From Verrucomicrobiota bacterium (GTDB taxonomy: Bacteria > Verrucomicrobiota > Verrucomicrobiia > Limisphaerales > Palsa-1400), in assembly GCA_049510745.1 (NCBI GenBank), contig JBEKYR010000008.1, forward strand, positions 210,232-274,231: a stretch of DNA of 64,000 nt, read 5' to 3'. The position numbers and the translations under genes are program-made. This document shows, piece by piece, positions 9,822 through 13,548 of this stretch. The notes beneath the pieces were generated by a model. It was not told where the DNA came from. It saw only the letters and a list, made by a program, of their open reading frames with translations, and made no database searches. Each line of letters begins with the position of its first letter. The first letter of the stretch is position 1.

Positions 9822-9868
9822 TTTTCGGGCTTTCTTCATGGGCGGAATTGGGGCTTTATGCGGTGATT

Positions 9869-10468
9869 ATGCCGAAACCGCAACCGAAGCGCTCCAAGGT
9901 CAAAAAGGACACCCCAACGCGTAGGCTTAAATTTGCTGGTCAAATCAGGGAGTGGGCCAAAAAAGATATTGTGACCGCAACATTTTTCGCGCAAAGAGGG
10001 AGAATATTCAGCGACATGGAATTGGCATTGGTGTGTTATTACTTCATCTGGGATAAATTTAAAGTCCTGCAATCCGGTCAAAATCCAATCGAACAAGGAA
10101 TTTTGGGGGAACTATGGACAAAGGAGGTGTCGGACGCATACTCAAAAAACATTTCGCAACTTTTTGCCCAAGATCGAAGAAAACTATGCGGGATATTCTT
10201 GAATGCAGTGGAAAACCGCGATGCTGGAAAGATTTTAGAGATTGCCAAGGCGGTCAAATTCTTAAAGACATTCAAAGAGAATAGCGACCATTGCCGGGCT
10301 GGCATCTTGGGTTTGAAAAGTGTACTGGATAAAAATAACCGAAAAATGCCAATCAGCGAACTGGCGCGGGCGGTCAAATGGCCTGCAAGTGACGCAAAGC
10401 ACGGATTTTGGAGACTTCGCAGAATCGCCAAGGAATTGAATTTCCCGCTGGAGCCTCAACACAAATAA
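9869..10468 (+). CDS. Hypothetical protein with possible C-terminal HTH
   Basis: AT-rich ORF; C-terminal MPISELARAVKW...LRRIAKELNFP looks helix-turn-helix-like. Confidence 0.6.
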   Translation: MPKPQPKRSKVKKDTPTRRLKFAGQIREWAKKDIVTATFFAQRGRIFSDMELALVCYYFIWDKFKVLQSGQNPIEQGILGELWTKEVSDAYSKNISQLFAQDRRKLCGIFLNAVENRDAGKILEIAKAVKFLKTFKENSDHCRAGILGLKSVLDKNNRKMPISELARAVKWPASDAKHGFWRLRRIAKELNFPLEPQHK

Positions 10469-10765: not shown

Positions 10766-10861
10766 GGGGCCAGTCCCCTTTGGCTGGACGCCGTAACGCG
10801 GGTTTAGACCGCTAGGGGCATTGTGTAATGCAATGGGGTTCGACTCCCACTGGTTCCACCA
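10766..10861 (+). tRNA. Non-canonical tRNA-like gene (allo-tRNA-like 9/3 fold, Ala identity G3:U70/A73, possible anticodon UUA)
   Basis: GGGGCCAGT pairs with ACTGGTTCC (9 bp), followed by A and an encoded CCA. T arm GGG-TTCGACT-CCC; V-like arm CATTG/CAATG; GCGG-GTTTAGA-CCGC hairpin; TGGC-TGGAC-GCCG D-like hairpin. Confidence 0.65.
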
Positions 10862-11017: not shown

Positions 11018-11566
11018 CTAGTCCGCCATCTCGCCGGTAAAAAACTCCACTATTTGTTCTTTTGTTCGCGGCTTGGTGCCGCGCTTCTGCACTACTTCGT
11101 GGTAAACTAAATAGAATCCAGTCCAGACGTCAGATTCATCGCCCTTTTGCTTTCTTATCACCTGGTCAAAACACGTCTCCCAGTAATATTGAATGTAAAT
11201 CGAGTAGTCGCAATAAATCCTACTTTTCTGCATTTCATGGTCTTCAAGCGCGGAGCCAAGATCATTAAAGAAATCAATTATATCCTCGCTTATGTCGGCT
11301 GGTTTATCCAGGTTTTCCAAGATTATTTTTGCGGCTTTTTGGCGCTTTGGTTCAAGCCGTTCCCAGCGTTCCTCGAAGTAATTGGCCCTTTCTTCGGCTT
11401 TTTCACCCCACTTGAACCGAGATATGAGAACGCAAAGGATTGCGCTTATGATAAACCATTTGCCTGCAATCGCGTGGTCTTGTGATGCGATGGCGGCAAA
11501 AAGCGGGGCACCAACTAACACAACCAGCCCCTCCGCTCGAATCCATCTGTGGAGCCAAGGAAACAT
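11018..11566 (-). CDS. Membrane-anchored hypothetical protein (DUF4760-like)
   Basis: Two N-terminal hydrophobic helices, then IIDFFNDLG...IY.DYSIYIQYYW resembling DUF4760. AT-rich. Confidence 0.6.
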   Translation of the reverse strand: MFPWLHRWIRAEGLVVLVGAPLFAAIASQDHAIAGKWFIISAILCVLISRFKWGEKAEERANYFEERWERLEPKRQKAAKIILENLDKPADISEDIIDFFNDLGSALEDHEMQKSRIYCDYSIYIQYYWETCFDQVIRKQKGDESDVWTGFYLVYHEVVQKRGTKPRTKEQIVEFFTGEMAD

Positions 11567-11689: not shown

Positions 11690-11727
11690 TTACAAATCGC
11701 GCCGCAGAGCGGCGGCGCGATTTGTAA
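11690..11727. repeat. Perfect 16-bp inverted repeat
   Basis: TTACAAATCGCGCCGC (11690-11705)/GCGGCGCGATTTGTAA (11712-11727), 6-nt loop. Confidence 0.8.
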
Positions 11728-11862
11728 GATCTCTCAATTTCTCCGTTGACAGGTTCTTGGCTGAAAACGCGGCGGGCGCGATTACAAGCTTCAAAGTAGC
11801 CCACTACCTGGCCTTGACTGGGCTTGACCGGACAAGGAGGAAGGCAGGATGAATTCAGCGGT

Positions 11863-13203
11863 TCAACGGCGGCGCGCCGTCAACGAGGAGGGTCGGGATT
11901 TCTTCCGGGTGCTTTTCGCCGCCGCCGGTTTTGCGCCTGTCCGGGCGTGTTGTTCCATCGCGGCTTCGACCCGGGCGCGGTCGGTTTCGACAAAGCACTG
12001 GAGTTGTTCGGCGGAGGGCAGCACCGTGAGATAGCGGGAAACGAAGAGGCGGTTGTCCATGCCCGCCGTGGCGAACTGCACCTTGGTGTGGTCCTTGTCG
12101 CTACAGAGGAGGATGCCGACGGGCGGTTGATCGCCCTCCGCCATCATGCGGTCCTTAAAATAGTTGAGGTAATAATTCATCTGGCCCGCGTCGCCGTGTT
12201 GGAAGGGGCGGACTTTCAGATCGAGCAGGACGTGGCAACGGAGGCGCCGTTGATAGAAGACCAAATCCACGTAGTCGTGCTCGTTGCCAAGGGTCACCCG
12301 GAACTGGCGGGCCTCGAAACAAAAGCCCGTGCCGAGTTCGAGCAGGAATTTTTGCAGGTGGTCGAGCAGGGCCGTTTCGAGATCGCTCTCGGTGTATTGC
12401 GGCAATTGGGCGAGGCCGGTGAATTCGAGGACGTAGGGATCGCGGATCAGGTCTTCGATGGTTTCCTGCGGCTCTTGAGCGCGGGCGCGTTTGATGACGG
12501 CGGCTTTATTTCTGGAAAGACCGGTCCGCTCAAAAAGGAGTGACCCAATCTGGCGTTGAAGCTGGCGCTTCGACCAGTTGCCCTTGAGACACTCGTTTTC
12601 ATAGAAGGCGCGCTTTAGCGGGTCGTCGATGCGAATGAGTTCAAGGATGTGCGTCCAGGAGAAATGAAGGACGGCTTCGGGAGAAAGAGGCGTTATGCCG
12701 GAAGATTGGCCAACCCGTGGTTGGCCAATTCCGTAACCGGTGGTGACGGAATGACCAGCCAGACCAGAGGTTGCCGGCGCGCTCAATTCCGTAAGCGGTG
12801 AGGACGGAATTTTGCCGCCAAAAGCGCGCCGGGAAATCCTCACCGGTGGTGAGGATTTTTGACTCCCACCGCCTGGCAGAAGGAGACGATTGCCCAATTC
12901 CCTCACCAGCGGTGAGGAAATCTTTGAGCCAAGTTGAGGATAAACTCCGTAGAGCAGGCGTGTGCGTTCCAACATCTGAACGCTTAAGCCACCGATCCCA
13001 CGTTGTTTCAGGTCAGCGGCAAGCCGTGACAACAATCGGACTCCGTATTTCGCGCGATCCTCGCCATTCTGCTCGAATTCCACGAGGTATGCCCCAACCA
13101 GCCAGTTACGGATGACGAGGGATTGATTGACGACGGCGGCGGCGCGACCGAGCAACTCCCGGCTGGCCGAATCAATCGCTTTGACAAGTTGATTGTATCT
13201 CAT
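11863..13203 (-). CDS. DUF1016/YhcG family PD-(D/E)XK nuclease with expanded internal region
   Basis: RNWLVGAYLVEFEQNGEDRAKYG, FSWTH, WSKRQLQRQI, IRDPYVLEFTG, FLLELGTGFCFEARQ, VDLVFY and GQMNYYLNY motifs. Confidence 0.92.
   Translation of the reverse strand: MRYNQLVKAIDSASRELLGRAAAVVNQSLVIRNWLVGAYLVEFEQNGEDRAKYGVRLLSRLAADLKQRGIGGLSVQMLERTRLLYGVYPQLGSKISSPLVRELGNRLLLPGGGSQKSSPPVRISRRAFGGKIPSSPLTELSAPATSGLAGHSVTTGYGIGQPRVGQSSGITPLSPEAVLHFSWTHILELIRIDDPLKRAFYENECLKGNWSKRQLQRQIGSLLFERTGLSRNKAAVIKRARAQEPQETIEDLIRDPYVLEFTGLAQLPQYTESDLETALLDHLQKFLLELGTGFCFEARQFRVTLGNEHDYVDLVFYQRRLRCHVLLDLKVRPFQHGDAGQMNYYLNYFKDRMMAEGDQPPVGILLCSDKDHTKVQFATAGMDNRLFVSRYLTVLPSAEQLQCFVETDRARVEAAMEQHARTGAKPAAAKSTRKKSRPSSLTARRR
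12728..12921. repeat. Four degenerate 25-bp palindromes (11-3-11) with unique spacers inside the DUF1016 gene
   Basis: Units at 12728-12752, 12786-12810, 12834-12858 and 12897-12921; spacers of 33, 23 and 38 nt. Confidence 0.8.
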
Positions 13204-13548
13204 GGGCGTCAGCGGGTGGCGTCACAAACTTCGTGCAGATGTCGCGCTCGCTGAGGGCCTCTTTCTCGGCTGAGGCCGTTCCAACTTCCGGTCGAGCGCA
13301 CCGGCGGCGGCAACGACACGAGGGAGATCAAGGTGTCCAGTCGGGGGCGCTTGCCCGGCGATTGGTGAAACTTTCGCGTCTTCAGCCATTGTGACTTCCG
13401 AGAGGATGGGCCGTAATGAGCAGACTTGCAGCAAAAAACGTCCTCCCGGGTGACTTGGGCGGGGCGGAGCGCATGAAGGCATTTGCAATTTTCGCGCGCG
13501 GAGATACAATAGGAGGAGTTGTTGAACCGGTTCAATCGTTGTTTTTCT

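Follow-up and report, generated by a model that had tools for sequence, protein, structure and literature searches.

The window analysed here, a stretch of 64,000 nucleotides from a Verrucomicrobiota bacterium, carries on its minus strand a yhcG/DUF1016 gene (11863..13203) coding for a protein of 446 amino acids with a split, predicted ParB-like DNA-binding domain and a PD-(D/E)XK nuclease domain. Both Pfam domains of the family (DUF1016_N, 95.7 bits against a cut-off of 32.8; YhcG_C, 179.8 bits against 32.5) and the PADLOC profile for the candidate defence system PDC-S02 (E 1.3e-121) identify the protein, at the level of sequence profiles, as a YhcG/DUF1016 member. Pfam found these two domains only, and an N-terminal CTPase domain is absent. 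The family is large and functionally uncharacterised, has a member in E. coli K-12 and is found with increased frequency next to restriction and CRISPR genes. Our literature search retrieved no validation of the anti-phage activity of PDC-S02.

The predicted recognition helix (residues S74-R82; 12958..12984, minus strand) corresponds to a helix spanning residues 75-87 in the structural model and aligns with the ParB helix that follows G-K-S. The N-terminal domain is then interrupted by a linker, and residues 94-167 were disordered in the full model, which reached a pLDDT of 56. The second half of the putative ParB-like domain (residues 181-225; 12529..12663, minus strand) contains T184 and K212, which covary with arm position 10 of the palindromes described below, and R213, which covaries with arm position 11. 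The nuclease domain (residues 251-400; 12004..12453, minus strand) was delimited by Pfam and column conservation. E289, D313, D328, K330, Q341 and Y345 are all present; among 203 genes D313 is conserved in 190 and K330 in 192, with 11 gaps each, and E289 and D328 are likewise conserved. The catalytic role of E289, D313, D328 and K330 is based on the PD-(D/E)XK motif as given in the accessible portion of PMC1189080. With these residues intact, the protein is predicted to be a nuclease.

A short segment at 13196..13257 (minus strand) is a scar of a collapsed type I restriction operon and comprises about 10 codons of an hsdR start and 23 nt around the yhcG start codon. It matches the hsdR start of locus L058 in 30/31 nt, where the ORF was assigned to HSDR_N by family search, and loci L004 and L006 around the yhcG start codon in 22/23 nt. 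As the hsdR start is fused to the sequence that precedes the gene in L004 and L006, yhcG appears to have outlasted the type I operon. Survival of yhcG past its restriction operon is seen here and in L004, L006 and L058, and the copy in the window lies outside any intact operon. The ORF upstream of yhcG in L004 and L006, which we read from its motifs as a RhuM-HsdM fusion remnant, gave no match in a Pfam search. In 5/5 relative genomes, the genes flanking yhcG here are on separate contigs. Neither a sigma-70-like promoter on the strand of the gene nor a second YhcG in the same genome (assembly 94% complete) was found.

The surroundings contain further features. Two A/T-rich ORFs, 9848-10468 (plus strand) and 11018-11566 (minus strand), lie in a low-GC stretch (0.49 vs about 0.61) and have no Pfam or PADLOC match; the latter has a weak likeness to the SLATT domain (E 0.002, below cut-off). 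A tRNA-like element of 96 nt (10766-10861, plus strand) has a paired acceptor stem, a T-arm, a CCA end and a long irregular body. ARAGORN with its default threshold does not report it, and BLAST gives no match to the tRNAs or tmRNA of the genome; a degenerate tRNA or an island-borne mini tmRNA-like RNA are possible identities. Downstream of yhcG, a perfect 16-bp inverted repeat with a 6-nt loop (11690-11727) is followed by a 52-nt segment (11778-11829) that is repeated at C2:26106-26157 (90%) and in other run contigs.

The palindromic array in the linker

A sequence-only reading of the gene had described an array of four palindromic units in the linker. These units are real and lie where they had been placed, with the arm symmetry that had been reported, but the array actually has five, a perfect unit at 12705-12729 having been missed. 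Each unit is an 11-3-11 palindrome of 25 bp, and symmetry is scored out of 11 arm pairs. In coding order they are unit 1 (12897..12921, 10/11), unit 2 (12834..12858, 11/11), unit 3 (12786..12810, a decayed dyad of 8/11), unit 4 (12728..12752, 10/11) and unit 5 (12705..12729, 11/11), which overlaps unit 4 by 2 nt. The spacer lengths of 38, 23 and 33 nt had been given correctly. The spacers are unrelated to one another, as claimed, although spacers 2 and 3 have orthologues in a relative (18/23 and 28/33 against L001); spacer 1 has diverged (19/38). Unit 4 is read in another frame (phase +1) while the ORF stays open, again as described, and unit 5 brings the reading frame back. Units 2 and 4 indeed differ by four compensated arm pairs, but one additional, uncompensated change had been overlooked. 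Orthologues of unit 3 occur in L001, L002, L004, L005, L052 and L058, and the tandem of units 4 and 5 recurs in L001, L003, L058 and L183.

The symmetry of the array goes beyond chance and beyond what the peptide forces. Four units of at least 10/11 lie within 251 nt, whereas 5000 base shuffles gave 0.0014 on average and never more than 1, and no other cluster of four within 220 nt exists in the 5.6-Mb genome. Synonymous recoding reached the observed symmetry with P <5e-5, 1e-4, 0.038, 4e-4 and 3e-3 for units 1 to 5, respectively. Together with the compensated changes, the recoding test supports the earlier suggestion that DNA symmetry rather than peptide is retained.

Assembly error as the cause of the array was ruled out by independent contigs: a contig of run X4, which is not marked as a possible source, covers all five units with zero differences, and contigs of X6 and X8 cover parts of the array, also with zero differences. 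The array is identical in metagenome contig L185, which may stem from the source sample. Tandem duplication of a unit with its spacer was rejected, the flanks of units within the gene being only 33-34% alike. A dispersed palindromic repeat (REP, Rickettsia palindromic element or MITE) was excluded by the presence of only two family-type sites of at least 10/11 elsewhere in the 5.6 Mb. Perfect family-type palindromes occur at G000 C5:2330 and C25:35307 with no YhcG gene nearby, the latter just past the 3′ fragment of a tRNA. Genes since lost may have left them as scars; a YhcG remnant at C5:2330 was discarded as tblastn detects none there. In addition, 11-3-11 palindromes are found at a fixed ORF position at G000 C1:10403, C22:24187, C8:44992, C2:70881 and C32:16541. 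Judged by their motifs, the first two ORFs are presumably ORF6N-like and the other three RhuM-like.

The dyad across the YhcG/DUF1016 family and its covariation with the protein

Homologs were drawn from collections of genomes, metagenomes and viruses as well as from relatives; 257 ORFs with both domain halves were reduced to 240 near-complete ones and to 215 at 95% identity. A linker unit of at least 9/11 is present in 198 of the 215 genes, 12 have one of 8/11 and 5 have none. The array is a local expansion of a dyad that the family at large possesses and that is not peculiar to this gene. Units of at least 10/11 with a 3-nt centre occur in 170/215 genes, those with even centres in 3-6 genes, and unit density is 373 in 27,249 linker windows versus 30 in 127,717 windows downstream. 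For the later tests, 203 genes were used whose units pass a filter for A/T-rich ends and the family centre, by which 12 genes were dropped and the outer consensus is shaped. Mean symmetry of the 389 family units is 9.95 versus 5.57 after recoding, a gap inflated by the choice of units for symmetry. The centre is purine-S-pyrimidine in 380/389 units and thus itself nearly symmetric, which makes the element close to a 12-1-12 dyad. Units per gene range from 1 to 6; 86 of the 203 genes have a single unit, hence no spacer, and 117 have several. The yhcG gene of E. coli K-12 has three, with symmetries of 10, 10 and 11 of 11 and starts at genome positions 3368130, 3368169 and 3368208. In short homologs, the palindrome codes for the helix that follows the recognition helix.

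Arm bases covary with individual residues of the protein. Mutual information with average-product correction was computed for 307 protein columns against 8 arm positions in the 203 genes, and the top corrected pairs were Q76-arm 6 (z 12.1), K212-arm 10 (10.5), E79-arm 5 (8.8), T184-arm 10 (7.6) and R80-arm 8 (6.6). The co-variation of the site with the N-terminal helix for which the sequence-only reading had proposed to look is thereby found, Q76-arm 6 and E79-arm 5 being the strongest helix pairs and R80-arm 8 the third. Summed uncorrected mutual information does not single out the recognition helix because phylogeny lifts many columns; the signal is pair-specific. In a test on 87 branch-disjoint pairs of genes, based on the nuclease-domain tree, the top four of 2456 tests were Q76-arm 6, K212-arm 10, E79-arm 5 and T184-arm 10 (P 9e-8 to 5e-6). 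These four pass Bonferroni correction and R80-arm 8 fails (P 5e-4); L78-arm 4 passes narrowly, for which we have no explanation.

The individual pairings agree with known protein-DNA chemistry (Arg/Lys with G, Asp/Glu with C, aromatic residues with T). At residue 76, Arg goes with G in 61/64 cases, Asp with C in 16/16 and Thr with T in 21/28. Residue 79 pairs Arg or Lys with G (69/82), Glu with C (32/35) and Trp, Tyr or Phe with T (29/30). Arg at position 80 is accompanied by C (50/53), and residue 212 combines Lys or Arg with C (61/65) and Thr with G (20/21).

A predictive code using four residues, trained on the 86 single-unit genes, gave 651 of 842 first-unit bases correctly in the 117 other genes (77%), compared with a mean of 36% and a maximum of 44% in shuffled controls. 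With relatives left out, it predicted 1132/1468 bases (77%) versus 60% from the nearest nuclease neighbour. Accuracy drops along the array from 77% for the first unit to 71% for the second and 60% from the third onward, and of 179 genes only 77 contain a fully matching unit (8/8). Unit 1 of E. coli yhcG fits the code in 7/8 bases. For the protein in the window, C is predicted at all four code positions; units 1 and 2 agree with 8/8 predicted bases each, and units 3, 4 and 5 with 3/8, 5/8 and 4/8. We therefore predict from the code that units 1 and 2 are the protein's own, cognate sites and that units 3-5 are non-cognate legacy sites, inherited from other specificity types. The proposal of intragenic sites for the protein's own DNA-binding domain, one of several in the earlier reading, is strongly favoured by this residue-to-base code.

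The structural model used for comparison is that of the short homolog L113 (alignment of 54 sequences, pLDDT 90) rather than of the window protein. Its best structural matches were a ParB-parS complex (Z 7.7, rmsd 3.7, 100 aligned residues) and Spo0J (Z 7.5, rmsd 2.6, 89 aligned). Among 48,161 chains, ParB and Spo0J ranked 1-2, KorB 4, SopB 11 and VirB 20. With Foldseek, all 17 matches listed down to rank 28 were ParB or Noc, at E 0.08 or worse, and profile comparison to ParB (22 proteins) gave a probability of 3.8% and E 0.011. These best matches suggest that the N-terminal domain of L113 adopts a ParB-type DNA-binding fold, every single score being weak (Z below 8 for a helical domain). Comparison of the N-domain profile with PDB sequences gave no meaningful match, Foldseek with the full-length low-confidence model gave weak nuclease matches only (best E 1e-3), and neither Pfam nor structural comparison found a KilA-N-like domain. 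Within the profile alignment, the helix after G-x-S, L-S-W-T-H and W-S-x-R fall on ParB helices reported to touch parS; T184 is aligned at ParB G201 and W-S-x-R at the following ParB helix. The covarying residues map to the equivalents of ParB helices 4, 6 and 8, the helices in contact with parS according to the available part of Jalal et al. (2020, PMC7383237). The N-terminus of L113 is one long helix, which forms the interface of the predicted dimer. The domain's homodimer score was 0.50, compared with 0.00 for the best control, a mark attained by 20/30 solved pairs and 1/23 single chains; contact agreement between runs was 100% and pLDDT at least 82. Dimerisation of the N-terminal domain via the long first helix, as a two-fold site requires, is thus predicted.

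Judged by sequence matching, cognate sites are found almost only inside the gene. Cognate-like sites outside it occur in 2/202 loci, compared with 2/1001 for the non-cognate control, which rules out operator copies upstream or in the flanks as a rule. The rest of this genome (assembly 94% complete) has no match to the cognate site better than 2 mismatches. Family-type sites outside the gene were found in 6/211 loci, for the most part at or close to the ends of YhcG genes or to remnants of them.

The homologs often sit closely behind other genes. In 64 of 129 cases the start lies at most 30 nt from the upstream ORF, and in 33 the two overlap by 4 nt. Among flanking ORFs, 16/68 match Cas and 11/68 restriction-modification families, shares that are biased because the 68 were picked from 109 with a preference for long same-strand ORFs. 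An enrichment beside such genes agrees with what can be seen of PMC9881135. In L022, L039, L041, L042 and L043, the YhcG gene (at about 3001) directly follows a Cas3 HD-domain ORF, and in L022 it is followed by a helicase ORF, placing YhcG between the two halves of a split cas3.

Proposed self-binding and rival explanations

Across relatives, particular residues of the protein and bases of the dyad vary together, which makes docking of the protein on its own gene likely. From this covariation we consider it very probable that YhcG binds the sites within its own gene. The palindromes would be double-stranded docking sites for the ParB-like domain encoded around them, and each subunit would read one 8-bp half-site, with Q76, E79 and R80 of the recognition helix reading the outer bases and T184, K212 and R213 the inner ones. 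Units 1 and 2 would suit the window protein; units 3-5 would suit other residue sets and be leftovers of earlier specificities. As the genes are often part of other operons and have no room for a promoter, an in-frame operator would be the one control site sure to travel along. Binding may lower transcription by acting as a roadblock and may keep the few dimers tethered to self DNA. If the site were lost or damaged, the nuclease would be freed, resulting in addiction or abortive defence. That a dimer binds its own gene and thereby restrains its own nuclease is, taken as a whole, the account we favour with moderate confidence, drawn from sequences and models. An observation that counts against self-restraint is that symmetry is no lower in non-cognate than in cognate units (mean 9.96-10.0 vs 9.96, subject to ascertainment, with a similar spread in a further analysis), which self-binding alone leaves unexplained. 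As far as PMC2672614 could be consulted, E. coli yhcG can be deleted and the deletion is synthetically lethal with replication mutants. Synthetic lethality of this kind points to repair rather than addiction; it neither needs nor excludes self-restraint.

Several observations would also fit a protein whose binding to its own sites serves to cut or nick the DNA close by and so initiate recombination, exchanging the helix together with the first unit between alleles, resizing the array and deleting neighbouring genes. DNA identity to the 22 closest homologs is 40-68% in the HTH segment and 64-89% in the flanking segments; close relatives have downstream units in common, but not helix and unit 1. 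Within a single clade of 51 genes, 27 different first half-sites occur, and unit number follows linker length (rho 0.74). At L004:2850-2940, immediately upstream of an intact paralog with another specificity, there is a deleted YhcG copy (first ten codons and two units). In this remnant the 5′ context of unit 1 is joined directly to unit 5, units 1 and 4 having collapsed onto each other, and deletion scars lie just upstream of the gene here and in L004, L006 and L058. The earlier suggestion of recombination sites that expand the linker is thus backed in part, by the length correlation and by this one direct example of recombination between units. Self-cutting, however, would be self-destructive unless rare, the collapse is explained by ordinary recombination between similar 25-mers, and no rearranged joints were seen in four runs, though contigs drop rare variants. 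We consider active self-cutting unlikely. Recombination between units and between alleles nevertheless probably builds the array, with units left over after a specificity switch becoming legacy sites. About equally unlikely, in our view, are cognate self-immunity marks resembling aba for BstA, with units 3-5 kept as immunity against alleles of other specificity. Such marks would accord with the rapid diversification of specificity, with non-cognate units that remain symmetric and persist across lineages, with the family's place among the PADLOC defence candidates and, as reported in the accessible text of PMC8585504, with a cognate DNA element of BstA that overlaps the gene start and acts in trans. 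Yet decay is under-seen since units were counted only if symmetric, and unit 3 here is down to 8/11; moreover, this genome yielded no second YhcG, and the domain matches only 11 of 50,697 phage records.

Neutral palindromes could arise through template switching at a quasi-palindrome, their covariation with residues reflecting hitchhiking of linked DNA, and compensated arm changes do dominate in the 87 independent pairs (199 compensated, 71 one-sided, 30 other). The signal, however, comes from individual residues along one face of a helix and from two helices on the opposite side of the array. In the 117 multi-unit genes, the first unit is predicted by T184 and K212 although they are far away (z 7.4 and 7.5), and residues 82-89, between helix and unit 1 and nearer to the latter, carry little signal (mean 0.30 vs 1.03), which makes linkage an unlikely cause. 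Furthermore, the pairings are chemical and hold in left-out clades. A purely neutral origin is accordingly improbable, even if template switching probably supplies the paired mutations and may keep legacy units symmetric. Least probable are mRNA hairpins or a CRISPR-like array giving guide RNAs for the nuclease, both of which the sequence-only reading had raised. The repeat/spacer layout and the many homologs beside cas genes (the biased 16/68 above) speak for guides. On the coding strand, however, arm mismatches comprise 76 G-T versus 98 A-C (P 0.11), and without a G-U excess mRNA hairpins are unsupported. The CRISPR-like framing likewise fails because the spacers are inherited vertically, spacers 2 and 3 being orthologous to those of L001, and match no phage or plasmid: comparison with such sequences gave best matches of E 3 or worse and no protospacer. 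Rfam returned three chance-level matches far below gathering scores, and the 86 single-unit genes offer no spacer at all.

Beyond self-restraint, a bolder extension can be sketched tentatively. YhcG might be a one-gene self/non-self system whose mark lies in the codons of its own domain and co-diversifies with it by the code. The array would then be a passport of marks, conferring immunity against rival alleles like orphan immunity genes, and ORF6N and RhuM genes might work alike.

Comparison with known systems

If the predictions hold, the family gains a fold and a DNA target. In the accessible text of Kosinski et al. (2005, PMC1189080), the N-terminal domain of YhcG/DUF1016 is left without a fold, and the available parts of that paper and of PMC4316617 treat the family without mention of palindromes. 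Our search of the open literature, with subscription papers largely outside it, found no published account of YhcG palindromes, ParB likeness or a code. The family would represent a natural library of ParB-like domains in which each gene states its own target, and, given the variety of half-sites within a single clade, the recognition code would cover far more specificities than ParB and Noc. A binding site that encodes part of its own binding domain would be an unusual evolutionary coupling, and multi-unit arrays would be a record of past specificity switches. The locus described here adds a five-unit array that can be divided, by prediction, into cognate and legacy sites side by side.

Some parS sites lie within parB. 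The closest parallel in recognition is offered by ParB-parS and Noc-NBS, which, following the accessible part of PMC7383237, have in common with YhcG the predicted fold, a site that is palindromic and its contact through three helices. T184 occupies the G201 specificity position, and outer and inner read-out are 5 bp apart in both systems (parS positions 1 and 6; YhcG arm positions 5 and 10). In contrast to ParB and Noc, YhcG is without a CTPase domain and has a nuclease fused instead, and its cognate sites were not found elsewhere in the genome beyond matches with 2 mismatches. Unlike parS, the YhcG site is built around 3 bp with A/T-rich ends, falls within the coding sequence of the domain itself and is gene-specific.

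CRISPR arrays resemble the YhcG array in their palindromic repeats with short unlike spacers in between. The YhcG array, however, is translated, its repeats vary with the protein, and its spacers are inherited vertically and lack protospacers. Coding palindromes kept by template switching, a subject of PMC6649704 and PMC3820800, likewise retain symmetry at the expense of the encoded peptide, but the length and position of the YhcG palindrome are fixed, and protein residues encoded elsewhere predict its bases. BstA-aba, as far as described in the available text of Owen et al. (2021, PMC8585504), is a single-gene module with a cognate, allele-specific DNA element that overlaps its own gene, as proposed here for YhcG. 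BstA has a KilA-N-like domain and the direct repeats of aba at the gene start, whereas YhcG has a predicted ParB-like domain and a mid-gene palindrome, often in arrays. By sequence and by analogy, the YhcG element appears ParB-parS-like in recognition and BstA-aba-like in logic, and a member of neither family.
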